UHGV virus genome: UHGV-0171332 | DNA from: a virus | DNA length: 18,525 nucleotides | Strand: one strand, 5' to 3' | Shown here: positions 3,154-18,525 of the stretch, one piece after another | Position numbering within the stretch: the first letter of the stretch is position 1 | Layout of the letters: every line of letters starts with the position of its first letter | The notes under the pieces: model-generated | The model's database searches: none | The model's input: the letters and a program-made list of their open reading frames with translations, nothing else | Told to the model about the DNA's origin: nothing | Translations under genes and position numbers: made by a program

Positions 3154-4419
3154 ATGAGCGGATTTGCACAGGGTTTACTTGCCGGATTCAGCACGGTTGA
3201 CCAGGCAATGACCCGTCGTAAGGAACTTGGTTTGCGAGAAGCACAGCTTGCTCAACAACAGAAAAATAACGAGCGCGATTTTGAATTTGCACAGTCGCAG
3301 TTTGAACATAATAAAGACGTTGATCAGCGGAACTTTGATTACAGAGCCAAAGTCGACGACCGTAATTATGCACTGCAGGAAAGGGAGTTTAACGCCAACC
3401 AGAATTACCGGAATGCGTCGCTGGGTATGGAGCAGCAGCGACTCCGGATGCAGAAATACAACCAGCGACGGCTTGAGTATAACGATATGCTGGCGCGCGA
3501 TCAGCCTGTGATGGCGGCGCTTGGAAAGGCTGTGGATGCTGGCGATCGGGATGCAGCAATGCGTCTTTACGGCCAGTTGTCAGAGGGTAATCCGCTGAGG
3601 CTGATGGCGAATGATGGCTATGTAGCGAAAGCGGGTCAGGCCGTGAACAACCTGCAAAAAATCTTTGATGACAAGCCAGACAGGGCTATCGCTTCACTTA
3701 ATACGCCGGAGAATCTTGATGTCCTTTCCGGGGTGTTTGGCCCGGAACTGCAACAGCGTATTGGCATGCCCGATTCAACCGGGAAAAAGACGATAAAAGA
3801 GGCCAGGATTGGCAGTATAGTACCGGCACAGCAGGAAGGGTACATACTTATCGGCCTTGATCTCACATACAGTGATGGCTCTACAGCACATAAACCCGTT
3901 ACGGAATACGGCAGTGCACATCCTGATGATCAAACCGTGCTGGCGGTGCCTGTTGATAAGGCTGTTGAGCTTGTCAGGGAACGCAGTAAATTCGCGGAAA
4001 TTTCGAAAAATTTCGGCTATTTCACGCCGAAGCAGCAGGGACTTTCTGCGGATCAACTTCAGAAAGGAGCCAGCCAGGTAGCGATAAAGGTTGCACAGGA
4101 CGGCGGTGATGCGCAGGGAGCAGTGACGCAATATTATGCTTCGATGGGACTGCCGCAGTATCAGCAGCAAATTCAGCAGCAAAAAATTCAACAAGGGATT
4201 ACCAGTTGGGCGGGTGATGATCCGGATAAGCAGGCATTTGCCAGAGAAGTGGCCTCCCGTCAGCCAGAAATGCTGGAGCCTCAGAATCAGAAATTGCTGG
4301 AACACGGGTATGCGAATTTTCTCCGTATTCAAAAGGCCAGGGAGGAACAGGCCAGGGATGATAGCGCGGCCTCTGCATCTGAGTTTATCCGTGGTCTGAA
4401 ACAGAATTACGCGCAGTAA
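3154..4419 (+). CDS. Hypothetical protein (421 aa), Gln/Asn/Arg-rich, probably coiled-coil rich
   Basis: SD AAGGAG upstream and the start lies 10 nt after the previous stop. The N-terminus has a GLLAGF small hydrophobic patch followed by long charged Q/R/E-rich stretches. No catalytic motif recognised. Confidence 0.6.
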   Translation: MSGFAQGLLAGFSTVDQAMTRRKELGLREAQLAQQQKNNERDFEFAQSQFEHNKDVDQRNFDYRAKVDDRNYALQEREFNANQNYRNASLGMEQQRLRMQKYNQRRLEYNDMLARDQPVMAALGKAVDAGDRDAAMRLYGQLSEGNPLRLMANDGYVAKAGQAVNNLQKIFDDKPDRAIASLNTPENLDVLSGVFGPELQQRIGMPDSTGKKTIKEARIGSIVPAQQEGYILIGLDLTYSDGSTAHKPVTEYGSAHPDDQTVLAVPVDKAVELVRERSKFAEISKNFGYFTPKQQGLSADQLQKGASQVAIKVAQDGGDAQGAVTQYYASMGLPQYQQQIQQQKIQQGITSWAGDDPDKQAFAREVASRQPEMLEPQNQKLLEHGYANFLRIQKAREEQARDDSAASASEFIRGLKQNYAQ

Positions 4420-4487: not shown

Positions 4488-7400
4488 ATGGCTTATTCCG
4501 ATGAACAGCGCCCTGAAGCGCAATTTGGCAACCAGAGCCGCAACAGCCTGAACATTCAGCAGCCGGGAGAGACTGACAGCTATGATGTGTTTTTCTCCGA
4601 TCCCAATCGCTGGAAGGACAACAGCACGTCGTTCAGCCTGGGCGATGTATTGCCAACTATGGGGAAAGGTGTCGCCCAGTCCGTCCGGGGGACAGGGGAA
4701 ATGGCCCGTGGACTCGGTGATGCGATGATTCAGAGCCCGGTAAAAACAGGGGTACGTATTTTAAATGAGTTCAGCCGTATGGGGCTGCCGGGAGTCGCAA
4801 CTGTTCAGGATATTTTTGTCGGTGGCAGCAAGGGGGCGGATGAGGTCATCGACACTCTGCCTGATGGAAAAAATGCGGTTACTGATACTGTCGGTAAAGG
4901 TCTGAAGGTCACAGGCAAGGCCGTCAGTGGCGGCGCTAAAGCCTCGGATGAATGGCTGACTGGCAAGATGTCGCCGGGGGCGCAGCGGGCGCTGAATACA
5001 CCGATGACTGAAGGATATGATGATTCAGCGGTCTGGGTAGCGAAAGGGGTTAACCTGATTGGTGCGCTTGTACCGGATATGGTTGCAGGCGGTGTGACTA
5101 AAAAGCTGGGTGATGTCACTCTGCGAAAAGTGCTGACCGCCGGGCTGGAGAAAAAATACATCGCGGCAGGGATGCAGCCGGAAAGAGCCACAGCACTGGC
5201 AGCCGAAGCTGTCGATAAAAAAATGCCGGATTTTTTCCAGGCAGGCCTGATCACCCATTCCACTGTCAGTGCGCAAGGGCGGAGTGCAATGGCAGCGGCA
5301 GATGCTGTTCTTAACGCGGATTATTCTGAGCTGGCGAAGTCACCGAAATTTCAGCAGACCTTTTTGTCAATTGATGCAGATCCGCAGCACGCGCAGCTTA
5401 CTGACCGCCAGAAAATGGACCTGGCAAAAGAGCGTGTTGCCGATGAGGTGCGTGCGCAGCTGGCAACCGATCCTGAATTGCTGGCTGTGAATGCCATGGC
5501 GGCAAAACTGGGCGATGCTCAGTTGCTTAATCTGGCGATGCGGGGCACGGCGAAGACCGTTAAAAGCGGCATTGTCAGAAATGCCACGGAACAGGGGACG
5601 ATTAATGCGGCGCAGGGTGGCTATTCACGCTATCAGGAAAACACGGCATTGCGTGAGACCGCCGGAATGGATGTGTCACCGTGGGAGGGCGTGGCTGACG
5701 CAACGATCGAAGGTGCAGCCCTTGGTGCTGCAATGGGGGCACCATTCGGTGCGGCTGCCGGATATCGTGGAAAACGTCAGGCGGCAGATGAAGCAGCCAT
5801 GCGTGAGGCTGAAAGCGTTCCTCAGGACGAATCGGCTCCGCAACCCGAACCGGTTGATCCGGTGGCACAGCATCGTGAATCTATGCAGGGGATGAATCGC
5901 GAGCAGCTTCTGGAACAGTATGCTGATGCGGATATGGCACATGAGGGAGACACGTCTGCCGTTCATCGCCGGGAAGCCGCCAGCCAGCTGTTGAATGAAC
6001 TGGATGAACAGGCGAAGCGACAGGCGGTGATGGATGAGCTGAAGGCGAAGCCGCGCCCTGAACTGCTTGAGGAATACCGAAAACTCAGCCAGAAGGAAGG
6101 GCGTACTGATACTGAAGAGCAGCAGTTACAGGCAATACGTGATGTGCTTCGCCCTCAGCGGGAGGCCAGACCGGAGGCACAGCCACAGCCGGAAAATGCG
6201 GATGATGGCGACGGGAGTATTTACCCGACGGTGCGGTTCCGCGATCCGGATGAAGTTCGTATTGAAATTAACGAGAGTGGTGCGTCCAGACCAGCAGAAC
6301 GCATTGAAAAGGTGCGTCCGGACAACCGTTATTTCACGGATGAAAAAAGTGCTCTGGGGAGCGACGTTTTCCGCAATGCCAGCGCCACCGGCCTGAAACC
6401 GTCCGTAGTGAAGAAAGGCGAGAATCAGTATGCCGTTGAAATGGATAATCCTGCGTTCTCTGAAGATGTGGCAACGGAGACCATTAACACTCTGGCTGAC
6501 GGAGAGCGTATTACTGATGCTGATCCGATGGAACAGCCCGCGTTCATGCGTGACCCGCGATTCCGTGGTTTTACGGGGGATGATACAGAAGTGCAGGCCC
6601 GTCTTGCTCGTGGCAACGCGCCGACGGCGGAAGAACTGGTGCGTTCCCAGATGGCTGAAGGTGATGCCGGTCCGACAGCACAGGAGTTAACTGAGCGTCC
6701 ACGCCTTCCCGCTCCCGGCGATATTCATCCCGGACAGGGATATCCGTTACCAGGAGAAGTAGCGCGTACGCCGGATGAAAATCAGGCCGGACGTGGTGGT
6801 CGTTTTACCACAACCGGTGAGGTGAAGGGCCAGAGTTTCCAGAAAGGACGTGCGCAGGCACCGGAAAATGCCGCTGGTCGCCAGGGGGAAATACTGGAGG
6901 GCGAAACAGTTCGTCGTGGTCTGCCGTCACCGGATGAGCAGAACGCCACAGCACCAGTGCGTGAAGGTCTTCCTGCACCTGAAAGTCAGCGTGGGGTTGA
7001 TATGCCACAGCCTGAATCACTCCCTCGTATGGTTCGTGACTCCCTTCCGGAACTGGCACAGCAGGCAGAAGCACGCAGACAGACCGGGGATAATCGCCAG
7101 ACCATAACCGATGTTCCGGATACTGAGGTGCCGGTGCCGGTAGATAAACCGAGCACTCACCAGCAGGCGCGTGGTGCGAAAATTGAAGACTTTGGCGAGG
7201 AGATTAAGGGCGCGGCAAAACACCGTTATGCGCAGCTTGCTGAAGCTATGGGTAAAACGCTGGAGGATGGGGAGTACGCGACACAACCACTGAGCAAACT
7301 GTTTCCAAAGCCGGATTATGCCCGTCTGGAAAAAGAAGGTGTGGATAGTGACACGCTGGCAATGATGGCGTTGTATCGCAGTGAAATTCCCACCAGAACA

Positions 7401-10400
7401 AGCCGTAACATGCAGAAATGGATCAGCATTGTTAAAAGCGGTCGCGAAGCTACTGCCGGTATGCTGGAGGGGAAAATTCCGGCAGCGAAACTGGCTGATA
7501 TGATGGACAGTAAGCCGGGGTTACGGAGCATGTCGGATACCTGGAAACTGCTCCGTACGCTTTCTGCATTGCAGATTGATAAAGCATCCGGCTATCGTGT
7601 CAGGTCCGGTGTTTATTCGTTTGTCGGGGGAAAACGTTACGATCCGCCGCAAATGATGTATTCGCTTCGTGATAGCAAGGGGCGCGACCTCTTTTTCTCG
7701 GAAAGCCGGGATGAGTTACTGAAAAAGGCGAAAGCATATTTCGATGAACAAGGCTCCAGAGAAAGGGAAACGCCAGCAACCTCTGCTGATGACAGAATAA
7801 CCTTTGACGTGTACCGGCATAAGGCCAGTGGCGACATTTTTATCGGTTATGGCAAAAACAGGCAGAAACTGAAGGGCGGTTTTGAGTCTGCCCGTGATGC
7901 ACATGATTATGTGCGCACACATCGTGATGAGCTGGTTAATCAGGTGAAGGCGCTGCGTGAAGTCTCGCGTGAGGAGCAGCGTAACGCCACCAACCGCGAT
8001 CGTACCGGACCAGAACGCCGCAAGGGGGATGTTTCGCCGGAGCAGTTCAGTGATGCGTTTGGTTTTCGTGGTGTGCAGTTTGGTAATTATGTGGAAAGTC
8101 CGCGTCGTCAGGCTGATTTGAACCGGGCTTATGACTCGCTGCATGACCTGGCTGACGTGCTGAACGTGCCGACAAAAGCGCTTTCTCTGAACGGTCGTCT
8201 TGGGCTTGCTTTTGGTGCCCGTGGTAAGGGTAAGGCGGCGGCACACTATGAGCCGGGTGAGGTGGCAATCAACCTGACAAAAGGTAACGGACCGGGGGCG
8301 CTGGCCCACGAATGGTTCCATTCACTGGATAATTATTTTGGTCGTTATGATGTTTCCACTGACGGGAAGATCACGTCAGGTGGCGACTATATGACGGAAG
8401 CACAGCGTGCCGGGCGCGTATTTAAAGACGGCAGGTATGTTGATGCGGAATATCCGGTACGTCAGGAGGTTTACGACGCGTTTAAAGGCGTGATGAAAGC
8501 CATTAACAGCAGTGACATGTTGCGTCGTTCTGAACGCCTGGATGGCGTTCGTTCAAAACCGTACTGGTCAACGGATGTTGAAATGGCGGCGCGAGCCTTT
8601 GAGCGTTATGTTCAGGATAAAGCGCGTATGGCTGGCGTGGAGAATGATTATCTGGTCAATATCCGTAAGGCGGATGACCATGGACAGCCGGACACCTACG
8701 CTTATCCGACGAATGCAGAACTGGATGGCGGTATTCGTGAGGCATTCGATCACTTGTTCCGAACACTGAAAACCCGTGAGACGGACAAGGGAGTTGCGTT
8801 TTATTCCCGTAAGGGCGTGACCCGCACACCTGAAGGCAATCTGATTTCGGATGTTAACCGCAGTGCGGAAGCCAAAGGCAGTCCGGTCCCGCAGGTTGAA
8901 GCTGTTGCCCGTGGCGTGATTAGTGGCATTAAGGACAGTGACCTGAAGGTCCGCGTGGTGAAGTCACAGAAAGAGGCTGAAGCACTGGCGGGTGAATCAT
9001 TCGACGGTTACGGCAAGGTGCACGCGTTCTATCGTCCGGATAAACGTGAAATTGTCCTGGTGGCGGATAACATCCCTGACGGGCGGACCGTTCGCGAGAA
9101 GTTACGTCACGAGATTATTCACCATGCAATGGAGCATGTAGTCACGCCAGCGGAATATCAGACGATTATTAAGACCGTGCTGAAAACCCGTGACAGTGAT
9201 AACGCCACCATCCGTGAAGCCTGGCGTAAGGTTGATGCGTCTTATGGTAAGGAATCACCGGAAGTGCAGGCGGGTGAATTTCTGGCGCATATGGCAGAGA
9301 AGCAGCCGATTAAATTCGTGGCGGCATGGGAGCGTGTTGTTGCCCTGGTCAAAGGGGTACTGCGTCGTACGGGGTTACTGAAGCCGACGGAACTGAACGA
9401 TATCAGACTTGTTCGCGAAACTATTCGCACGTTAGGCCAGCGTGTGCGGGAAGGTTACACGCCGCGTGAGGATGGCGCGGACGCATCGTCTCAGTACTCC
9501 CGTAGCGGTAAGCCTGATCCGTTCAAAGTGCCGGAAGGTGAGGGCGAGCGTTATCGTGATGACCTTGCCAGAATGATGAAGTCTCTGCGCACCACAGATT
9601 TAACGGTAAACATCGGGCGTACGCCGCCGGTATTGCGTCACCTTGGCGCACCAGATTTGCCGCTGGTTATCTCCCGCGACACTGTGCGTAAGGCCACCAA
9701 TGGAGTGAAACATGTGGTGCCGATGGATGTTATCGAGAGACTACCGGAACTGATGCACGATCCGGATGCAATTTACCGTTCCGCGACAGAAAGAAATGCG
9801 GTTGTGATGCTGCTTGATGCCATGGATAAAAATGGTGATCCTGTAGTGTCAGCGGTACACATGAAGGCTGTCCGGTCGCGCCTGGAAATCAACAAGGTAG
9901 CTTCGGTTTACGGTACGGAAGGAGGAATGAATAAGGCAAATAGTCTGGATAAAGCCGGATTAACGCTTTACCGGAAGAAAAAATTAAGCCGCGATAACCT
10001 TCTGCACAGAGGGCTTCAATTGCCCAAAGGGGAACATTCTTATCGCGGCTCTGTAGATAAAATACTCTATCCTGAAGATATTCGCAAGGGGCCGTATTAC
10101 TCCCGCACCAGCAGTCTGACGCCGGAAGAGACAATTGCATCCCGTTTTGTTCGCCAGATGCAGGATAAATTCCAGGTGCTGAAGGCGGTGCAGGAGAATA
10201 TCCGTAAAACTGGCGGAAAAATAGATGACAGCAATAACGCCTATATGGCTGAAGAACTCTTCCACGGGAAGGCGGAAAACGACCTGAACGTAATGAAGGA
10301 GCGCTACGTTCAGCCGCTGGCCAAATTGCTGGCGGACTACAAAATTGCGCAGGCCGATCTGGATGAGTACCTCTACGCCCGTCACGCGCCGGAACGTAAC

Positions 10401-12842
10401 GCGCATATTGCGAAAATCAACCCGAAAATGCCGGACGGCGGTTCGGGGATGACCAACGCGGAAGCGGCGGAAATCATGCAGCGTGTGCGTAACAGCGGCA
10501 AACAGGCACAGTATGACCGTCTGGCAGGGATTATTGACGATATGCTGGCCCGTCGCCGTGAGATTATCCGTGAGGCAGGACTGGAAGAGAGCGGCGTGGT
10601 GGATGCCTGGCAGAAAGCCTACCGTTACTACGTCCCCCTGAAAGGGCAGGATGTTGACGGTGTGGTGTCACTGCCACGTACAGGCAAGGGATTCACCATC
10701 GGCGGGCGTGAAAGTAAGCAGGCCATGGGGCGTGCATCCCGCGCACAGTCTCCTTCCACTCAGGCGATACAGGATTTGAGTGAATCGCTGATCCGCAATC
10801 GCAAAAATGAAGTGGGTAACGCCTTCCTGAAACTGGTACAGGATAATCCCGACAAGGATTACTGGCAGGTATTCACTGATGACAGACCGGATACAATGCG
10901 TGTGATTGCAGAGCGCAAGGACCAGGAAACTGGTGAAACCATTCGCGAAGTTGTCGAGCGCCCTGTGCCGATGGCAATGATGGCGGATCGCTACTTCACC
11001 ACCAAAAAGGACGGCAAAACTTACTACATTAAACTTCATGATCCGCGCCTGATGCGTGCGATGAAGAACATGGGGCCGGAAACCAGTAACGCCGTAATCC
11101 GTACGCTGGGGAAAGTTAACCGCTTCCTGGCAACGGTGAACACGTCGTATAACCCGGAATTTCTGGTCAGTAACTTCATCCGTGACGTGCAGACTGCGGT
11201 GATGAACCTGAAGGCTGAGCAGGGAAGAAGCGACGGCAAACTGAAAGGGCTGGATAACTTATCCGCGCTGGCTGTGGTGAAAGACAGCCGTTCCGCCATG
11301 TCAGCCGTATACGCAAGTCTGCGGGGTAAAACCCTCACGGGCAAAGGCGCACAGTGGCAGAAAGTGTGGAAAGAGTTTGTTGAGGACGGAGGTAAAACCG
11401 GCTGGTTTAACATGGGTGACCTTGAGGGCCAGCAGAAGGAAATGGATCGCCTTGTGTCGCTGGCGAAGGGCGGATGGAAAGGCCAGAGTATCGGTGCATG
11501 GCATTCGTTCCTGAACCTGGTCGAGGATGCCAACGGCGCGGTTGAAAACGCTCTGCGTCTTTCTGCCTATAAACACGCCCGTGATGCCGGTTTGTCACGC
11601 CAGCAGGCGGCGTCTCTTGCCAAAAACATGACGGTGAACTTTAACCGTCGTGGTGAGCAGGGGATGCTGATGAACTCGCTGTACATGTTTGCCAACGCCA
11701 GCATTCAGGGGACCGCAAACCTGGTGAGAACGCTCGGACATCTTAATGGCGACGGGCCGTTACTGGAGCGCCTTCGCTGGAAGAATCTCAATGTACCGCA
11801 GAAAATCGTGCTTGCAGCTGTGGGAGCGGGTTATCTGCTTGGCTCGCTTAACCGCAGTGTGGCGGGTGAGGATGATGACGGGGTTAACTGGTACGACAAA
11901 GTACCGTCTCATGTGAAAGAGCGTAACCTCGTCATCATGAAATCGATGTTCGGGGGCAAGGCCGGTGAGTACTGGAGTATTCCTCTGCCTTACGGGTACA
12001 ACGTGTTCTTCCTGCTTGGTCATACAGCTGAAGGTGTGGCAGCGGGCGACCTGACTGCTTCACGTGCTGCCGGTAATGTTGTCGGCGGTATCCTGGGAGC
12101 ATTCAGCCCGATCGGCAGCGAGACGTCGGAAACGTTGTCGGGGGCATTGCTGAAAAACGCAGCACCGACCATTCTGCGTCCGTTTGCGAACCTTGCCATG
12201 AATGAAAACTTCATGGGGGCGCAGATTTACCAGGAGAACATGCCGTTTGGTACACCAAAACCTGACAGCCAGCTGGGAAGACGTTCAACGCCAGAAGCGT
12301 ACAAGGCGTTTGCATCCTGGCTGAATGCGTTCTCAGGTGGCAGCCAGTATCGTCCCGGCGCGGTGGATATCACACCGGAATCGCTGAAATTCTGGATTGA
12401 CTATATCTCCGGAGGGACAGGGCGCTTCATTTCCAAAACCACGGATGCGGCGGTGAAATCGCTGAATGGTATTGATATACCGGAACAGCAGGTGCCCTTC
12501 CTGGGGAAAATTTCGGGTGAGGTGATGCCGTATGCAGACCAGCAGAAGATGTACGACCGGATGACAGAGGTTGCGCAGTATCACGCAGAGCTGAAGAGTC
12601 TGACCGGTGCAGAAAGAACGGCGTTCATTGACGAGAACAACGGAAAATTGTTGATGAACGGGCTTATGCAGGATACCCGGAAGAGACTGAAGGATTTGCG
12701 CAAACAGCGCGATGCCATTTATGCCGACAGTTCTCTCAGTCTGGCGCAGCAGGCGGCGATGGTGAAATCGGTAGAGCGGGATATGAAGGTTGCCGTGGAT
12801 CGGTTTAACCGCGAGTACAACAAAAAAGTGGGAGTGGATTAA
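4488..12842 (+). CDS. Giant multi-domain protein (2784 aa) with two HExxH (zincin-like) motifs, a Pro/Glu/Gln-rich low-complexity linker and hydrophobic Gly/Ala segments; function unknown
   Basis: Uninterrupted 8355-nt ORF with GGAG SD. HEWFH at aa 1274-1278 (nt 8307-8321) and HEIIH at aa 1541-1545 (nt 9108-9122). Gly/Ala hydrophobic stretch EGAALGAAMGAPFGAAAGY at aa 408-426 (nt 5709-5765). C-terminal hydrophobic segments near aa 2438-2454 and 2529-2545. No Walker A or methyltransferase motif seen. Coding status is high confidence; functional assignment is low. Confidence 0.85.
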   Translation: MAYSDEQRPEAQFGNQSRNSLNIQQPGETDSYDVFFSDPNRWKDNSTSFSLGDVLPTMGKGVAQSVRGTGEMARGLGDAMIQSPVKTGVRILNEFSRMGLPGVATVQDIFVGGSKGADEVIDTLPDGKNAVTDTVGKGLKVTGKAVSGGAKASDEWLTGKMSPGAQRALNTPMTEGYDDSAVWVAKGVNLIGALVPDMVAGGVTKKLGDVTLRKVLTAGLEKKYIAAGMQPERATALAAEAVDKKMPDFFQAGLITHSTVSAQGRSAMAAADAVLNADYSELAKSPKFQQTFLSIDADPQHAQLTDRQKMDLAKERVADEVRAQLATDPELLAVNAMAAKLGDAQLLNLAMRGTAKTVKSGIVRNATEQGTINAAQGGYSRYQENTALRETAGMDVSPWEGVADATIEGAALGAAMGAPFGAAAGYRGKRQAADEAAMREAESVPQDESAPQPEPVDPVAQHRESMQGMNREQLLEQYADADMAHEGDTSAVHRREAASQLLNELDEQAKRQAVMDELKAKPRPELLEEYRKLSQKEGRTDTEEQQLQAIRDVLRPQREARPEAQPQPENADDGDGSIYPTVRFRDPDEVRIEINESGASRPAERIEKVRPDNRYFTDEKSALGSDVFRNASATGLKPSVVKKGENQYAVEMDNPAFSEDVATETINTLADGERITDADPMEQPAFMRDPRFRGFTGDDTEVQARLARGNAPTAEELVRSQMAEGDAGPTAQELTERPRLPAPGDIHPGQGYPLPGEVARTPDENQAGRGGRFTTTGEVKGQSFQKGRAQAPENAAGRQGEILEGETVRRGLPSPDEQNATAPVREGLPAPESQRGVDMPQPESLPRMVRDSLPELAQQAEARRQTGDNRQTITDVPDTEVPVPVDKPSTHQQARGAKIEDFGEEIKGAAKHRYAQLAEAMGKTLEDGEYATQPLSKLFPKPDYARLEKEGVDSDTLAMMALYRSEIPTRTSRNMQKWISIVKSGREATAGMLEGKIPAAKLADMMDSKPGLRSMSDTWKLLRTLSALQIDKASGYRVRSGVYSFVGGKRYDPPQMMYSLRDSKGRDLFFSESRDELLKKAKAYFDEQGSRERETPATSADDRITFDVYRHKASGDIFIGYGKNRQKLKGGFESARDAHDYVRTHRDELVNQVKALREVSREEQRNATNRDRTGPERRKGDVSPEQFSDAFGFRGVQFGNYVESPRRQADLNRAYDSLHDLADVLNVPTKALSLNGRLGLAFGARGKGKAAAHYEPGEVAINLTKGNGPGALAHEWFHSLDNYFGRYDVSTDGKITSGGDYMTEAQRAGRVFKDGRYVDAEYPVRQEVYDAFKGVMKAINSSDMLRRSERLDGVRSKPYWSTDVEMAARAFERYVQDKARMAGVENDYLVNIRKADDHGQPDTYAYPTNAELDGGIREAFDHLFRTLKTRETDKGVAFYSRKGVTRTPEGNLISDVNRSAEAKGSPVPQVEAVARGVISGIKDSDLKVRVVKSQKEAEALAGESFDGYGKVHAFYRPDKREIVLVADNIPDGRTVREKLRHEIIHHAMEHVVTPAEYQTIIKTVLKTRDSDNATIREAWRKVDASYGKESPEVQAGEFLAHMAEKQPIKFVAAWERVVALVKGVLRRTGLLKPTELNDIRLVRETIRTLGQRVREGYTPREDGADASSQYSRSGKPDPFKVPEGEGERYRDDLARMMKSLRTTDLTVNIGRTPPVLRHLGAPDLPLVISRDTVRKATNGVKHVVPMDVIERLPELMHDPDAIYRSATERNAVVMLLDAMDKNGDPVVSAVHMKAVRSRLEINKVASVYGTEGGMNKANSLDKAGLTLYRKKKLSRDNLLHRGLQLPKGEHSYRGSVDKILYPEDIRKGPYYSRTSSLTPEETIASRFVRQMQDKFQVLKAVQENIRKTGGKIDDSNNAYMAEELFHGKAENDLNVMKERYVQPLAKLLADYKIAQADLDEYLYARHAPERNAHIAKINPKMPDGGSGMTNAEAAEIMQRVRNSGKQAQYDRLAGIIDDMLARRREIIREAGLEESGVVDAWQKAYRYYVPLKGQDVDGVVSLPRTGKGFTIGGRESKQAMGRASRAQSPSTQAIQDLSESLIRNRKNEVGNAFLKLVQDNPDKDYWQVFTDDRPDTMRVIAERKDQETGETIREVVERPVPMAMMADRYFTTKKDGKTYYIKLHDPRLMRAMKNMGPETSNAVIRTLGKVNRFLATVNTSYNPEFLVSNFIRDVQTAVMNLKAEQGRSDGKLKGLDNLSALAVVKDSRSAMSAVYASLRGKTLTGKGAQWQKVWKEFVEDGGKTGWFNMGDLEGQQKEMDRLVSLAKGGWKGQSIGAWHSFLNLVEDANGAVENALRLSAYKHARDAGLSRQQAASLAKNMTVNFNRRGEQGMLMNSLYMFANASIQGTANLVRTLGHLNGDGPLLERLRWKNLNVPQKIVLAAVGAGYLLGSLNRSVAGEDDDGVNWYDKVPSHVKERNLVIMKSMFGGKAGEYWSIPLPYGYNVFFLLGHTAEGVAAGDLTASRAAGNVVGGILGAFSPIGSETSETLSGALLKNAAPTILRPFANLAMNENFMGAQIYQENMPFGTPKPDSQLGRRSTPEAYKAFASWLNAFSGGSQYRPGAVDITPESLKFWIDYISGGTGRFISKTTDAAVKSLNGIDIPEQQVPFLGKISGEVMPYADQQKMYDRMTEVAQYHAELKSLTGAERTAFIDENNGKLLMNGLMQDTRKRLKDLRKQRDAIYADSSLSLAQQAAMVKSVERDMKVAVDRFNREYNKKVGVD

Positions 12843-12965
12843 CAGAAATGGCCCCGTACGGAAGTGCGGGGCTGATTAAGAAATAAACACACATTAACCT
12901 GTAATAACCGGAGCTATTAACATATAGTCAGAAAGAGTGTTTCATGTGAGACAGAGAGCCGATTT

Positions 12966-13184
12966 ATGTTTAATGAAGAAAAAGTTGCGCAAATGGCAGC
13001 GTATTTGCTGAAAAAGCATGGCGGATCTATGCGTTTCATTAAGCTGATGAAGCTGATGAAGCTGATGAAGCTGATGAAGCTGATGTATCTCTCTGACCGC
13101 AAAGCAATGGAGTCTTTAACCGGGAAGGGGAGAGGTTTGAATGCTCCCCCACAATTCCCCGGCATCAAATCTCCATGCAGGTGA
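12966..13184 (+). pseudogene. Truncated Panacea/SocA-like (DUF4065-type) phage-associated gene fragment carrying an in-frame repeat expansion
   Basis: The N-terminus MFNEEKVAQMAAYLLKKHGG...KLMKLMYLSDR resembles the start of Panacea-domain proteins as I recall them (KLQKLLY-type helix). The ORF stops after 72 codons where it meets the 3' end of the convergent minus-strand gene block; full-length family members are roughly twice that length. Confidence 0.4.
13041..13085 (+). repeat. Perfect 9-bp tandem repeat (AAGCTGATG) x5, in frame (KLM x5)
   Basis: Five head-to-tail copies read directly in the sequence. The minus-strand reading gives the spurious ISF repeat ORF. Confidence 0.95.
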
Positions 13185-13270
13185 ACTATTTTACCCCCAG
13201 CGGCAAATCGCAAAAACAATCAGTGCGATCAAAATGGCAGCCACTACAATTGCAAATGCTTCAGGCTAGG

Positions 13271-14197
13271 TCATTGGCGTACCTCCTTCGGCGGTTCTGG
13301 TAGCGGCATCCAGTGGGTTACTTCTTTGAGATGCAGGTCTTCGCCATCACCGTCATCCCAAGTGGGATTGCCATCATTAAACCAGTCGCCATATACGCCG
13401 ACCTGAGTGTTGGGGATGCTTGGTGGGTAGTTGTTTTTAAAGTCAGCTGCTAACACATAGTATTGTCGCTCTCCCATTTCTGGCATTCGATCACTACAGC
13501 TTATCCAACCATCCGGAGTTACCGGAACTGGCGGAACGGCTGTTTGCTCTCGAACGTCATTAGTCGCTATCGGTTCTGCTGCCAACTGACTGGCATATTT
13601 GTTAATGGTAACGATAAGCTCTTGCTCAGCCTCATCCAGACAATCACCGATACCTCGCCTGTCACCGTCAAAATCATCGAAATCGGCACGAATCTTGGCA
13701 ACCTTCAGGATTGCGGACAACACCTCACTAGGAATTACCGGATAGTTGGTTGACGTTTCCGCGATTTCCCGAAAATTATTGGTTGACGAATTCTTGTTTT
13801 CCCGAAAGTTTCCGGACTGAAGCATAGCGGCACGGCAGGCGTTCCAGCCTCTCACCTCTGCAATAGCGGCAACAGCATCAACCGCGTACATGCTAAGAGG
13901 ATTAGGCATTGGTTTTTCTTCCGGTACTACTGGTGCTGGAGGGGCGGCGTAAATGCCCTCTATCACTAAATGTTTGCGCTCAAAATCATCTGGCTCTCGA
14001 TGATATACGTAACTCCAATCACCAAGGTTATCATTGCGCCTGCAACGGAAACCTATCGGCTCGGCTTCCAGCGCTGCCAGTGCAATTCGTGCCAGTTCTT
14101 CCGCTTCTTCTGCTGGCAGTACAACGTTGCTACCCGGTCCGTATGTTTCGCGCCACTGCTTGATTGTCAGCAGTCGCCCTTTGGTAATAGTGATCAT
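13271..14197 (-). CDS. DUF551-domain protein, Ead/Ea22-region type (308 aa)
   Basis: C-terminal region DGWISCSDRMPE...YYVLAADF...THWMPLPEPP matches the DUF551 signature as I recall it. Its stop lies at the convergence junction and its start overlaps the upstream gene stop by 4 nt (ATGA), indicating an operon. Confidence 0.7.
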   Translation of the reverse strand: MITITKGRLLTIKQWRETYGPGSNVVLPAEEAEELARIALAALEAEPIGFRCRRNDNLGDWSYVYHREPDDFERKHLVIEGIYAAPPAPVVPEEKPMPNPLSMYAVDAVAAIAEVRGWNACRAAMLQSGNFRENKNSSTNNFREIAETSTNYPVIPSEVLSAILKVAKIRADFDDFDGDRRGIGDCLDEAEQELIVTINKYASQLAAEPIATNDVREQTAVPPVPVTPDGWISCSDRMPEMGERQYYVLAADFKNNYPPSIPNTQVGVYGDWFNDGNPTWDDGDGEDLHLKEVTHWMPLPEPPKEVRQ

Positions 14198-14709
14198 GCC
14201 GCGTTTCCTTCTTTCTTATTAACAATCACACCGTCATATATTTCATTAAGGTGCCCTCTCAACTCCATGCGCCTTAATGCAGATAACATGTAATCGCATT
14301 CAACCTGCTTATTCCCAGTAAATGGCTTATCGTCAGGATTACCCCAACAGCAATTACCCCTGGGCCATCCATGTACTTTCCGTACTCTTCCGTTAACAAC
14401 GTGAAGTAATCCCCAGCCGGGAGGTAAATCCTCAACTGAAATAATTTCCGGCTCACTAATAAAGAATCGCCAGTCGCCCATGCCAAGTGAGGGATTTTTA
14501 CGGAAACGCTTTTTTCTATCTGCCAACAAGTCAGCACGAGAACACTTCGCCTCTATCAGGCATGATGCTGAATTTCTGAATCCCATAGCATCTGGCTGTT
14601 CTCCGGTACTGGTTACAGCTATAAAGCGGTCATGAAAACAAACCTTGAACCCGTTGCGCTTAAGGAACTTGTACGCAATCTGACAGAGTTCGCGGTGTGT
14701 TAATGCCAT
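14194..14709 (-). CDS. Hypothetical protein with PD-(D/E)xK nuclease-like motif (171 aa)
   Basis: Motif EQPD...(12 aa)...LIEAK: a PD followed by ExK at spacing typical of the restriction-endonuclease-like fold. The C-terminal half is Cys/Trp-rich. Fold assignment is an inference from motif only. Confidence 0.55.
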   Translation of the reverse strand: MALTHRELCQIAYKFLKRNGFKVCFHDRFIAVTSTGEQPDAMGFRNSASCLIEAKCSRADLLADRKKRFRKNPSLGMGDWRFFISEPEIISVEDLPPGWGLLHVVNGRVRKVHGWPRGNCCWGNPDDKPFTGNKQVECDYMLSALRRMELRGHLNEIYDGVIVNKKEGNAA

Positions 14710-14710
14710 A

Positions 14711-15412
14711 TCACTCTCCTTTGATGCGAATGCCAGCGACGCGTAATGCGTGTTCTAGGTCAATCAGGTAAAGCCAACTGCCATTTTCTTTAGGTATCAT
14801 GACGTGGCGCTCATCATCATTTATCGGATGTCCATATCGAAGGCCGTAGCGAGTCGGCAAATGAACTTCCCGCGTTTCCAGCTCTTTAACGCGTTCCTCC
14901 AGTTCGTAGACCCTGCATTGTTCTCTATCATCAATCAGATATAACCCAAGACATTCGCTTTCTACCCAACCGCCAAAATCATGATCGTAACGCTCACATG
15001 AAAACTCACCGTCACCGTCCTTTGTTGGAATGGTGTAACTATCTAATGGGCCACCATATGTCGGCACATTTCCCAATGTTGGATGCTCAATCCACATGAA
15101 AAATGTACGTCCGGTTATTGGGCAAATATCTGGCCGCCATTGGTTACGAACAGCCTTGGTTTCGGATAATTCTTCAGCGTGTTGTTTTACTTCCTCAAGC
15201 TCAACACGCAGCTTCCCAACCGTAAGAGCAATTTCCTCGTTCTCCTGGTCGCGGCGTTTGATGTATTGCTGGTTTCTTTCCCGCTCATCCAGCAGTTCCA
15301 GCACAATCGATGGTGTTACCAATTCATGGAAAAGGTCTGCGTCAAATCCCCAGTCGTCATGCATTGCCTGCTCTGCCGCTTCACGCAGTGCCTGAGAGTT
15401 AATTTCGCTCAC
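14711..15412 (-). CDS. Ead/Ea22-like family protein (233 aa)
   Basis: N-terminus MSEINSQALREAAEQAMHDDWGFDADLFHELVTPSIVLELLDERE followed by a charged coiled-coil-like stretch, as recalled for Ea22-like proteins of E. coli lambdoid prophages. The 4-nt overlap (ATGA) with the upstream TraR-like gene fits lambda early-left organisation. Confidence 0.7.
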   Translation of the reverse strand: MSEINSQALREAAEQAMHDDWGFDADLFHELVTPSIVLELLDERERNQQYIKRRDQENEEIALTVGKLRVELEEVKQHAEELSETKAVRNQWRPDICPITGRTFFMWIEHPTLGNVPTYGGPLDSYTIPTKDGDGEFSCERYDHDFGGWVESECLGLYLIDDREQCRVYELEERVKELETREVHLPTRYGLRYGHPINDDERHVMIPKENGSWLYLIDLEHALRVAGIRIKGE

Positions 15413-15630
15413 TTCGAACCTCTCTGTTTACTGATAAGCTCCAGATCTTCCTGGCAACTTGCACAAGTCCGACAACCCTGAACGACCAGGCGTCTTCGTT
15501 CATCTATCGGATCGCCACACTCACAACAATGAGTGGCAGATATAGCCTGGTGGTTCAGGCGGCGCATTTTTATTGCTGTGTTGCGCTGTAATTCTTCAAT
15601 TTCTGATGCTGAATCAATGATGTCTGCCAT
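15409..15630 (-). CDS. TraR/DksA-family C4 zinc-finger protein (73 aa), phage TraR-like (lambda orf73-type)
   Basis: CCECGDPIDERRRLVVQGCRTCASCQ contains the CxxC...CxxC zinc ribbon with the conserved acidic tip of the DksA/TraR family. The size matches phage and plasmid TraR proteins. Confidence 0.8.
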   Translation of the reverse strand: MADIIDSASEIEELQRNTAIKMRRLNHQAISATHCCECGDPIDERRRLVVQGCRTCASCQEDLELISKQRGSK

Positions 15631-16020: not shown

Positions 16021-16212
16021 TCATACCTGGTCTCTCTCATCTGCTTCTGCTTTCGCCACCATCATTTCCAGCTTTTGTGAAAGGGATGCGGCTAACGTGT
16101 GAAATTCTTCGTCTGTTTCTACTGGTATTGGCACAAACCTGACTCCAATTTGAGCGAGGCTATGTGCCATCTCGATACTCGTTCTTAACTTAACGGTAGA
16201 TGCTTTGTGCAT
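16021..16212 (-). CDS. Hypothetical small protein (63 aa), lambda orf63-like by position and size
   Basis: Internal ATG at 16212 preceded by a G7 tract. The long form of the track ORF (to 16458) would overlap the ren start and its promoter region, so it is disfavoured. Assignment to the lambda orf63 family is by length and position only. Confidence 0.45.
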   Translation of the reverse strand: MHKASTVKLRTSIEMAHSLAQIGVRFVPIPVETDEEFHTLAASLSQKLEMMVAKAEADERDQV

Positions 16213-16321
16213 ACAGCCCCCCCATTTATTATTTATCTCCTCAGCCAGCCGCTGTGCTTTCAGGGGATTTCGGATTACAGAAAGGCCGGGAAATACCCAG
16301 CCTCGCTTTGTAACGGAGTAG

Positions 16322-16420
16322 ACGAAAGTGATTGCGCCTAAACCTCTAAATCGTGCACAGGCTCTGGCGAAGATCGCAGAAATTAAAGCTAAGTTCGGAC
16401 TGAAAGGAGCAAGTGTATGA
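16322..16420 (+). pseudogene. Possible 3' remnant of an upstream replication-region gene (lambda P-like position) ending in an ATGA overlap with ren
   Basis: A 33-codon open frame (TKVIAPKPLNRAQALAKIAEIKAKFGLKGASV*) with no start codon; its stop overlaps the ren ATG as in stop-start coupled phage operons. Identity as a P fragment is inferred from synteny only. Confidence 0.25.
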
Positions 16421-16719
16421 CGGGCAAAGAGGCAATTATTCATTACCTGGGGACGCATAAGAGCTTCTGTGCACAGGACGTTGCCGCGGTAACAGGCGCA
16501 ACCGTAACCAGCATAAATCAGGCTGCGGCTAAAATGGCGCGGGCAGGAATCCTGGTCGTTGATGGTAAGGTCTGGCGAACGGTGTATTACCGGTTCGCTA
16601 CCAGAGAAGAACGGGAAGGAAAGGTGAGCACGAATCTGATTTTTAAGGAGTGTCGCCAGAGTGCCGCGATGAAACGGGTATTGAGGGTATATAAAAGAAC
16701 ATCAATGGGTACACAATGA
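16417..16719 (+). CDS. ren: Ren-like protein (100 aa)
   Basis: SD AAAGGAG upstream. The sequence MTGKEAIIHYLGTH...VTSINQAAAKMARAG...VWRTVYYRFATREEREGK matches my recollection of lambda Ren (not searched). It sits immediately upstream of emrE, as renD does in DLP12. Confidence 0.6.
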   Translation: MTGKEAIIHYLGTHKSFCAQDVAAVTGATVTSINQAAAKMARAGILVVDGKVWRTVYYRFATREEREGKVSTNLIFKECRQSAAMKRVLRVYKRTSMGTQ

Positions 16720-16786
16720 TGAAACAGGTGAGTTGAGTTCAAACTGTAGTACAATTCTCTCCAGTTTGAACAGGAAAGAATATGCT

Positions 16787-17119
16787 ATGAACCCTTATAT
16801 TTATCTTGGTGGTGCAATACTTGCAGAGGTCATTGGTACAACCTTAATGAAGTTTTCAGAAGGTTTTACACGGTTATGGCCATCTGTTGGTACAATTATT
16901 TGTTATTGTGCATCATTCTGGTTATTAGCGCAGACGCTGGCTTATATTCCTACAGGGATTGCTTATGCTATCTGGTCAGGAGTCGGTATTGTCCTGATTA
17001 GCTTACTGTCATGGGGATTTTTCGGCCAACGGCTGGACATGCCAGCCATTATAGGCATGATGTTGATTTGTGCCGGAGTGTTGGTTATTAATTTATTGTC
17101 ACGAAGCACACCACATTAA
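16787..17119 (+). CDS. emrE: EmrE small multidrug resistance (SMR) efflux transporter (110 aa)
   Basis: MNPYIYLGGAILAEVIGTTLMKFSEGFTRLWPSVGTIICYCASFWLLAQTLAYIPTGIAYAIWSGVGIVLISLLSWGFFGQRLD...STPH is near-identical to E. coli EmrE as I recall it, including the catalytic Glu14 in helix 1. The track's TTG start at 16733 adds 18 non-conserved residues and is rejected. Confidence 0.92.
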   Translation: MNPYIYLGGAILAEVIGTTLMKFSEGFTRLWPSVGTIICYCASFWLLAQTLAYIPTGIAYAIWSGVGIVLISLLSWGFFGQRLDMPAIIGMMLICAGVLVINLLSRSTPH

Positions 17120-17150
17120 AAATAATTTGTTTCTAAACGACTAAAATATG

Positions 17151-17190
17151 GAGGCTCTTATATTTATATGAGCCTCGTTTTATGCTTTTT
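17151..17190 (+). terminator. Rho-independent terminator of emrE
   Basis: GAGGCTC / GAGCCTC stem with an AT-rich 12-nt loop followed by GTTTTATGCTTTTT, 30 nt after the emrE stop. Confidence 0.6.
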
Positions 17191-17377
17191 GTTAATGTCT
17201 TTATTTTTTTTTATGTATTCTTTTGTGCTTTCAAGATTATGGTGTAAGAAAATTGCAATACGATTATTGTTGTATATTCAAGATAATGTGACCTTAATTG
17301 TCTTTTTAAATAAAAATTAAACAAAAATTATATCTCACCACTAAGGTTTATAAAAACATACGTTAGCAGGTGTCACC

Positions 17378-18525
17378 ATGAAAAAAGCCATAGCATATAT
17401 GCGATTTTCATCACCAGGTCAGATGTCTGGCGACTCATTAAACCGACAGAGAAGACTTATTGCTGAATGGTTAAAGGTAAATAGTGATTATTATCTTGAT
17501 ACCATAACATATGAAGATTTAGGATTAAGTGCATTCAAAGGAAAGCATGCACAATCAGGAGCTTTTTCGGAATTTTTAGATGCTATAGAGCATGGTTATA
17601 TATTGCCAGGAACTACATTGTTAGTTGAAAGTCTGGACAGGCTTTCAAGAGAAAAAGTCGGTGAAGCGATTGAACGTCTGAAATTGATTTTGAATCACGG
17701 TATTGATGTTATAACTCTTTGCGACAATACAGTCTATAATATTGACTCTTTGAATGAGCCATATTCATTAATAAAAGCCATACTTATAGCACAAAGGGCA
17801 AATGAAGAAAGCGAGATAAAGTCAAGTCGGGTTAAATTATCATGGAAGAAAAAACGGCAGGATGCACTGGAATCAGGTACGATTATGACGGCGTCTTGTC
17901 CGAGATGGCTATCCTTAGATGACAAAAGAACGGCTTTTGTTCCAGACCCCGACAGGGTGAAAACTATTGAGCTAATTTTTAAACTCAGGATGGAAAGGCG
18001 CTCATTGAATGCAATAGCCAAGTATTTAAATGATCATGCTGTAAAAAATTTCTCAGGAAAAGAAAGTGCATGGGGGCCTTCTGTAATTGAAAAATTATTA
18101 GCGAATAAAGCTCTGATAGGTATATGCGTACCTTCATATCGTGCAAGAGGTAAAGGAATAAGTGAAATCGCTGGCTATTATCCCAGAGTCATATCAGATG
18201 ATTTGTTTTACGCTGTGCAGGAAATTCGGTTGGCACCTTTTGGTATTAGCAATAGTAGCAAAAATCCTATGTTGATAAATCTACTTCGAACAGTTATGAA
18301 GTGCGAGGCTTGTGGTAATACCATGATTATTCATGCGGTATCTGGAAGTTTGCATGGCTATTATGTTTGTCCGATGAGAAGACTGCATCGATGTGACAGG
18401 CCATCAATAAAGAGAGATTTGGTTGATTATAATATCATTAATGAGTTGCTTTTTAATTGTAGCAAAATCCAACCAGTTGAAAACAAGAAAGATGCTAATG
18501 AAACTTTAGAGTTGAAAATTATTGA
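17378..18525 (+). CDS. ybcK: Large serine recombinase (resolvase/invertase-type N-terminal catalytic domain), 5' part only; runs off the window end
   Basis: N-terminus AIAYMRFSSPGQ matches the catalytic-serine motif of serine recombinases (Y-x-R-x-S-x-x-x-Q), and Cys-rich CEACGN...CPMRRLHRC suggests a zinc ribbon in the recombinase domain. The symbol is assigned by synteny with DLP12 emrE-ybcK: the 258-bp spacing matches my recollection of K-12 to within a few bp. Confidence 0.8.
   Translation, partial: MKKAIAYMRFSSPGQMSGDSLNRQRRLIAEWLKVNSDYYLDTITYEDLGLSAFKGKHAQSGAFSEFLDAIEHGYILPGTTLLVESLDRLSREKVGEAIERLKLILNHGIDVITLCDNTVYNIDSLNEPYSLIKAILIAQRANEESEIKSSRVKLSWKKKRQDALESGTIMTASCPRWLSLDDKRTAFVPDPDRVKTIELIFKLRMERRSLNAIAKYLNDHAVKNFSGKESAWGPSVIEKLLANKALIGICVPSYRARGKGISEIAGYYPRVISDDLFYAVQEIRLAPFGISNSSKNPMLINLLRTVMKCEACGNTMIIHAVSGSLHGYYVCPMRRLHRCDRPSIKRDLVDYNIINELLFNCSKIQPVENKKDANETLELKII

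Follow-up and report, generated by a model that had tools for sequence, protein, structure and literature searches.

A variable, probably slippage-prone 9-bp coding repeat in a putative PanA pseudogene remnant of a 933W-like Stx-type prophage

The DNA analysed here (hereafter the window, a single stretch of 18,525 nt) comes from a 933W-like (Sepvirinae) Stx-type prophage and forms its right arm. The late arm ends with a gene for a very large polyvalent protein, behind which a 72-codon ORF runs towards a convergent block of minus-strand genes. This gene order is common to the Shigella phages POCJ13 and 75/02 Stx, to the prophages of cM8a and FORC_069, and to O104:H4 outbreak strains. The features of the window are as follows.

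117-854: Lom, followed by several small genes
4488-12842, plus strand: gene for a 2784-aa polyvalent protein (LPD5, LPD1, MuF_C and LPD38 by Pfam), the last gene of the late arm
12850-12873, plus strand: G+C-rich hairpin just past the stop of the polyvalent-protein gene (-20.5 kcal/mol, z = -5.4 against shuffles)
12966-13184, plus strand: 72-codon ORF, read here as a remnant of a PanA (Panacea-domain) gene plus read-through (ORF list, PHROG matches)
12966-13113, plus strand: part of the ORF homologous to full-length PanA (PhiR5_2 DNA alignments, tblastn with the 174-aa PanA, homologues P0016 and P0017)
13113..13114: putative deletion joint, from a one-long-gap alignment to PhiR5_2 (L027)
13114-13184, plus strand: non-homologous tail of the ORF, TGKGRGLNAPPQFPGIKSPCR, former intergenic DNA that is not conserved in frame
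13120-13162: imperfect inverted repeat CCGGGAAGGGGAG...CCCCCACAATTCCCCGG between the convergent units
13271-14197, minus strand: convergent DUF551 gene (Pfam PF04448, E=1.2e-19)
15228-15283: crossover from Sepvirinae-type to DLP12-like lambdoid prophage, inside ea22 (14711-15412, minus strand)

The polyvalent-protein gene precedes the locus in cM8a, POCJ13, FORC_069, 933W, PhiR5_2 and the IMG/VR locus L026, and the DUF551 gene is the neighbour on the other side in POCJ13, cM8a and FORC_069. DUF551 is the first gene of a minus-strand, b-region-like block that continues with a hypothetical gene, Ead/Ea22 (14711-15412) and TraR/DksA (15409-15630). The stop of the 72-codon ORF lies 86 nt before the stop codon of the DUF551 gene, and the frame does end where the convergent minus-strand cluster begins, as the original prediction had stated. 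The hairpin at 12850-12873 is terminator-like but lacks a T tract, and a consensus terminator scan did not pick it up. On the minus strand just past the DUF551 stop, at 13191-13265, we noted a strongly hydrophobic, transmembrane-like stop-to-stop frame (PEAFAIVVAAILIALIVFAICRWG, followed by a stop) with no ATG and only an internal GTG, possibly the remaining C-terminal end of a gene for a small membrane protein.

Within the ORF, Tandem Repeats Finder reported (AAGCTGATG)x5 at 13041-13085 on the plus strand (period 9, 5.0 copies, 100% matches, score 90), the sole array with at least three perfect copies in the 18,525-nt window. By our own arithmetic, four exact reiterations of a 9-mer are expected by chance in 18.5 kb at 18525 x 4^-36, or ~4e-18. 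The array sets in 75 nt past the ATG at 12966 and is read in frame as KLM x5 within the ORF, the translation of which is MFNEEKVAQMAAYLLKKHGGSMRFIKLMKLMKLMKLMKLMYLSDRKAMESLTGKGRGLNAPPQFPGIKSPCR; the perfect in-frame array called earlier from the letters is therefore confirmed by both the program and the translation. Rfam found no family anywhere in the window at gathering thresholds. At E<=1 the C/D-box snoRNA models SNORD74, sR2 and sR5 matched the array below threshold (13033-13105); we regard these matches as chance, the repeat unit chaining a C-box-like UGAUGA (CTGATGA) and a D-box-like CUGA (CTGA), and as an artefact to be borne in mind when automated scans are read. A minus-strand ORF of 100 codons at 12917-13219, with a TTG start and ISF repeats across the array, is considered spurious, having no support.

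The original prediction held that the ORF is a truncated Panacea/SocA-like gene and proposed a search of its product against Panacea/DUF4065 profiles. On this point the outcome was divided. Pfam (E<=10) returned no family for the 72-aa and 63-aa alleles, and scans of the 72-, 66- and 63-aa alleles with Pfam and NCBIfam gave nothing relevant; the full-length gene found at the same site in relatives does match PF13274. The PHROG matches of the ORF were to phrog_3658 (a remnant family), phrog_28947 (the 933W-type remnant) and phrog_1281 (the full-length family), and the phrog_1281 profile matched the ORF weakly (E=1e-4 to 3e-4) as against 1.4e-38 for the full-length protein. The ORF is thus tied to Panacea only via PHROGs and direct homologues. 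Among the latter, P0016 and P0017 are identical to it through ...FIKLMYLSDRKAME and then continue with LYGFPISGDHYFSMNKGPVLSQTY..., with divergence after ...DRKAME; both match PF13274, and the P0017 gene lies directly 3' of the same polyvalent-protein gene. In PhiR5_2 the same site holds a complete 174-aa gene that covers 112 of the 113 positions of PF13274 (E=2.4e-19). Full-length PanA also occupies this site in the IMG/VR loci L013 and L014, and L026 has a partial, 109-aa PanA copy after the same LPD5/LPD38 gene. Residues 10-47 of the ORF are the N-terminus of the PhiR5_2 and P0017 PanA proteins, save for the extra KLM units, which upholds the predicted Panacea-like N-terminus, and the syntenic full-length gene in PhiR5_2 and several IMG/VR prophages upholds the predicted truncation.

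Codons 1-49 of the ORF in the window correspond to codons 1-37 of a one-copy allele. Because a full-length gene is present at the same site and DNA identity with PhiR5_2 stops at 13113, we read the ORF as a remnant. A GPV beta-strand next to the central helix is strongly conserved in PanA (Kurata et al. 2022, PMC8832971); the ORF does not have it, since the homology ends before the NKGPVLSQTY segment of PhiR5_2. In addition, no adjacent co-directional partner gene is present, the distance to the convergent DUF551 gene being only the 86 nt given above. Since profile match, GPV strand and partner gene are all missing, the ORF is unlikely to encode a functional Panacea protein; judged from sequence, it is a gene fragment and should be filed neither as a Panacea-domain protein nor as a toxin-antitoxin system.

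A single-sequence AlphaFold model of the ORF predicted one helix at residues 4-17 and another at 22-51, the latter spanning the repeat, where pLDDT was best (83-91); residues 52-72 had pLDDT ~50-55 and no secondary structure. Such a model, two helices and an unstructured tail, is weakly consistent with a remnant. A scan of 12700-13400 found no sigma-70 promoter; two terminator-like calls inside the ORF from a scan of the same interval look like chance. The ATG of the ORF is kept and its reading frame is open in >1500 contigs. Furthermore, the first 75 nt of the ORF show 0 substitutions between 933W and the window, compared with 7 differences in the 123 nt upstream, a weak hint that the N-terminal codons, or a DNA or RNA element located there, may be under constraint.

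DNA identity between the window and PhiR5_2 begins upstream of the ATG and breaks off at 13113; in the one-long-gap alignment, window 13089-13113 equals L027 4561-4585 at 25/25 positions. Relative to PhiR5_2, ~470 bp are absent, namely all of PanA from codon 38 onward, stop included, and the opening codons of what remains of the partner gene. Past the joint, window 13116-13181 resembles L027 5054-5134 (~80% over ~65 bp), with a local alignment score of 31 against 17.5 +/- 2.4 for shuffles, and the collinear part includes a hairpin (CCGGGGA...TCCCCGG) and the decamer TCCATGCAGG. No copy of window 13114-13270 was found downstream of any full-length PanA. The pattern appears to fit a single internal deletion in a somewhat diverged ancestor; because no full-length locus has an identical downstream segment, this model relies on the ~80% match over ~65 bp, and replacement by a related allele could also have produced the joint. 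The joint itself is common to POCJ13, 75/02 Stx, O104:H4 prophages and >1500 contigs, regardless of repeat copy number.

The last 21 codons of the ORF are read-through of this former intergenic DNA. A 1-bp-shorter variant gives a different, 91-aa product and is present in 508 contigs, including O104:H4, versus at least 1000 for the 63-aa form. The inverted repeat at 13120-13162, which lies in this region, has a homologue in the hairpin that follows PanA in PhiR5_2 (alignment to L027 5054-5097). It folds on the plus strand at -26.1 kcal/mol (z = -2.6) and on the minus strand at -32 kcal/mol (z = -3.0), and is likely a bidirectional terminator-like hairpin.

The number of 9-bp units varies among close relatives. 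One copy is found in POCJ13, 75/02 Stx and the full-length PhiR5_2-type genes, two in FORC_069 and most IMG/VR loci, three in E. coli cM8a, five in the window, and six in the IMG/VR locus L011 and the metagenome contig L031. The flanks of the array are identical among the 1-, 2-, 3-, 5- and 6-copy loci, which are otherwise 97-99.8% identical. A window-type remnant is present in 43 of 5,426 complete E. coli genomes, with two copies in 42 of the 43, three in the remaining one and five in none. A metagenome scan placed alleles with at least three copies on one contig, and a collection of 15 billion proteins contains no exact copy of the 72-aa product. Over 8,968 bp, L031 and the window differ by 12 substitutions (99.77% identity) and by one repeat unit, and cM8a is 99.3% identical and two units apart; repeat copy number would therefore shift within the time of a few substitutions per 9 kb.

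Intact distant relatives (P0008 and P0010-P0015) read LKLMKLLYL at the corresponding position, that is, two KLx units. Because intact relatives also carry two such units, the two-unit KLMKLMY appears to be the native KLxKLxY motif of the family's N-terminal helix, spelled in this lineage with identical codons. A diverged Panacea relative, P0018 (108 aa, PF13274 match), reads HLKLLKLMKLLYLSDRE, with three KLx units rather than two, and this suggests that the helix motif may have gained one unit independently in another lineage. We also observed that the RefSeq/PGAP name of the same remnant changes with repeat number: the 3-copy allele (L001, cM8a 3267-3467) is a 'Panacea domain-containing protein' and the 2-copy allele (L003, FORC_069 3267-3458) a 'hypothetical protein'.

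The earlier note had left two options for the array, a hypervariable site or a relic of a rearrangement, and had suggested comparing copy number across related genomes, where five invariant copies and no longer homologues would have spoken for an intact small gene. The comparison gave the opposite: copy number is variable, from one to six in loci 97-99.8% identical, and longer homologues exist. The relic option fell away, as the array lies 28 bp upstream of the joint at 13113/13114 and KLMKLMY matches the native KLxKLxY. Short perfect tandem repeats are an established substrate for slipped-strand mispairing, and from the pattern of alleles we infer that the array is a slippage VNTR.

To place the remnant among its relatives, an intact version of the cassette can be seen in Yersinia phage YeP1. 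Its 186-aa PanA is 49% identical to the PhiR5_2 protein (PF13274, E=7.7e-21) and overlaps a 135-aa downstream gene by 4 nt, the usual PanAT layout. The 135-aa partner matched no Pfam family; it may encode a toxin. In PhiR5_2 (L027, PV340546, 4474-5025) PanA is kept and the partner is cut to 15 codons. In 933W (L004, AF125520, 5265-5612) codons 1-27 of the ORF are shared and are followed by an out-of-frame jump to the last ~24 PanA codons, and the 62-aa L0135 begins directly past the PanA stop. The parts of the YeP1 partner matched by L0135 are residues 5-15 and 91-134 (pairwise E=7e-8 and 0.004; PHROG cross-match E=1.9e-5), and L0135 so, judged by the YeP1 comparison alone, looks like an internally deleted partner gene; a homologue search with L0135 returned no longer E. 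coli version. The size of the partner thus runs by lineage from 15 codons in PhiR5_2 through 62 aa in 933W to the intact 135 aa of YeP1. Because three lineages show three different lesions, the locus is most simply read as a two-gene PanA cassette that is decaying under no selection.

The full-length PanA alleles at the locus (PhiR5_2, L013, L014 and L023-L026) carry a single KLM unit, and in all of them codon 9 is changed from CAA to TAA and followed by ATG (TAAATG); the annotated 174-aa product of PhiR5_2 starts at this Met10. The TAAATG could allow reinitiation, or it could be a first step of decay.

We next consider the surroundings of the locus. The original prediction had taken the absence of int and xis between the accessory and leftward clusters as a sign that two phage modules were joined here. 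Neither gene is present in the window, and this part of the claim stands. Their absence is not unusual, however: in Sepvirinae prophages int is at the other prophage end and not between the late arm and the leftward block, and in 933W and FORC_069 the leftward DUF551/Ea22/TraR/Ant block extends to attR (the attR core in 933W, the disrupted ynfG in FORC_069). The missing int/xis should accordingly not be taken as a scar at 12843-13270. The joining of two modules at this interval is not supported for this genome. The closest relatives are collinear with the window across the locus (cM8a 9700-15304, L031 4674-13632, L011 12987-15304), but the locus does border an older boundary, which leaves the word 'scar' partly true: past ~13181 the right-hand modules differ by lineage, with the DUF551 block in the window and POCJ13, IbrB/IbrA in PhiR5_2, and a ygiW-like gene plus hokW in 933W, and for this reason the PanA slot is seen to adjoin an old mosaic boundary.

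A switch of parental type is located elsewhere, 2 kb to the right of the repeat locus. As far as 15283 the sequence of the window is that of cM8a; from 15228 to its end it is that of E. coli strain 1409, and the two share a stretch of 56 bp. The prophage of strain 1409 is DLP12-like and sits at the lambda att site (ybhC-ybhB), with int and xis on the far side of ea22; the window has neither because the exchange at 15228-15283 puts the Sepvirinae arm in their place. The DLP12-like part runs TraR, DUF1382/DUF1317, P remnant, ren, emrE, ylcJ, ybcK. The combined Sepvirinae/DLP12-like arrangement is absent from all complete E. coli genomes and from the 6-copy relative L011; the switch reflects either true recombination between prophages or a chimeric assembly at the 56-bp shared stretch.

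Several details of the DLP12-like block can be added. Window 16021-18525 is 99.7-100% identical to strains 1409 and ET358 and includes the replication-protein-P remnant, ren (16417-16719), emrE (within 16733-17119, for an SMR transporter), ylcJ and the first part of ybcK; like DLP12, the block has lost the immunity and replication region. The DUF1317+DUF1382 frame at 16021-16458 is one 145-aa ORF in the window, and the annotation of strain 1409 has a frameshifted DUF1317 and a separate DUF1382.

Taken together, these results favor, with a probability of roughly 0.85, a reading in which the ORF is a PanA pseudogene remnant left by a ~470-bp deletion, carrying a drifting slippage VNTR, in a decayed two-gene cassette of 933W-like Stx-type prophages. 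The ancestor would have held PanA and a downstream partner in a 'moron' slot after the polyvalent-protein gene of such prophages. A deletion of ~470 bp would then have taken out the remainder of PanA together with the beginning of the partner, leaving the first ~38 PanA codons, from which translation would enter the former intergenic DNA and stop after 21 unrelated codons. The retained KLxKLxY motif would be spelled by two identical units (AAGCTGATG AAGCTGATG), and two perfect units may suffice for slipped-strand mispairing during replication. From there the array would drift among 1, 2, 3, 5 and 6 copies, with stability falling as length grows. With a 9-bp unit and a gene that is presumably already dead, gains and losses would stay in frame and would probably be neutral.

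We weighed this reading against others. The ORF might be an intact, functional small gene encoding a two-helix micro-protein derived from the PanA N-terminus, with a KLM-variable second helix, possibly acting as a decoy or modulator of co-resident PanA-type antitoxins or toxins. The same start is used and the frame is open in all window-type loci (at least 1500 contigs), three lineages show no variation in the N-terminal 25 codons, PGAP calls the 3-copy allele a 'Panacea domain-containing protein', and AlphaFold places helices there with its best pLDDT (83-91) over the repeat; the three KLx units of P0018, which still matches PF13274, suggest that the helix may tolerate insertions. Yet three quarters of the domain is gone, GPV strand included, the C-terminal third is hairpin read-through that is frameshifted in a third of carriers, no promoter-like site was seen in 12700-13400 and no profile sees the domain. 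Moreover, 933W has destroyed the same gene in another way and the full-length version has a stop at codon 9, a pattern of no selection, and we consider a functional small gene unlikely. Its stronger form, in which an expressed helical micro-protein of ~60-75 residues has the binding of its KLM helix to the PanA-type antitoxins or PanT toxins of other prophages tuned by slippage, is highly improbable; if true, the micro-protein would be a rapidly evolving decoy in inter-prophage competition or superinfection.

An illegitimate join of two modules, which removed int/xis and gave birth to the repeat in the same event, draws on the lineage-specific modules right of ~13181, by which a mosaic boundary abuts the locus, and on the lack of int or xis in the window. 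It is very unlikely, given that the closest relatives run collinear through 9700-15304, that the 13113/13114 joint recurs in POCJ13, 75/02 Stx, O104:H4 and >1500 contigs at any copy number, that the repeat is 28 bp from this joint and matches the native family motif, that int in this group is found past attR, at the opposite end of the prophage, and that the parental switch is at 15228-15283. That the five copies arose through faulty assembly or sequencing of a two-copy locus is scarcely credible: the exact product is indeed missing from the 15 billion proteins and five copies from every complete E. coli genome, but the 45-bp array is shorter than any modern read, six copies recur in L011 (IMG/VR) and L031 (metagenome), which belong to the same lineage and were assembled independently, and cM8a has three.

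The reading as a PanA pseudogene remnant with a slippage VNTR has practical consequences. In annotation, the ORF should be named a PanA pseudogene fragment and not a 'Panacea domain-containing protein' or 'hypothetical protein'. The 9-bp array, which evolves fast, could serve as a cheap marker to separate near-identical Stx-type prophages, its states being two copies in the O104:H4 type, one in POCJ13 and 75/02, and 5-6 in the lineage of the window. The three independent decay states of one PanA-partner cassette form a clean natural series in Stx phages and a small data point on the erosion of addiction or defence cassettes after their fixation in prophages. Literature searches on DUF4065 with Shiga toxin and on VNTRs in Stx phage or 933W found no description of the locus.

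With regard to known systems, the closest comparison is to PanA of the PanAT type II toxin-antitoxin systems (PMC8832971). The N-terminus of the ORF, MFNEEKVAQMAAYLL...KLMKLMYLSDRKAME, is that of a PanA subfamily, and the same MIFSEQKVAQ N-terminus was restored to the Pseudomonas moraviensis PanA (PMC8832971); the syntenic 174-aa homologue passes the Pfam threshold, and YeP1 shows the typical overlapping two-gene layout. Unlike these systems, the window keeps ~38 of ~183 codons and is without GPV strand, Pfam match or adjacent partner. A second comparison is to the decayed addiction or moron cassettes of 933W-like Stx prophages (L0135, the hokW/sokW region), which likewise lie between the polyvalent-protein gene and the leftward b-region-like block. 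The 933W remnant ORF with L0135 and the ORF of the window are lesions of the same ancestral cassette; the window differs in having another deletion, no L0135, ygiW-like gene or hokW, and the DUF551 block directly.

The array itself resembles in-frame coding VNTRs and simple-sequence contingency loci: it is head-to-tail and perfect, its unit length is divisible by three, and it is polymorphic among near-identical genomes, with the longer alleles (5, 6 and 6 copies) in one sub-lineage. In classical contingency loci a functional gene is switched on and off, or a surface protein is varied. Here, in contrast, the host gene appears already inactivated and the 9-bp unit never shifts the frame; because of this inactivation, copy-number variation has no evident phenotypic output. 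The locus is thus most probably an ordinary slippage-prone coding VNTR in a pseudogene.
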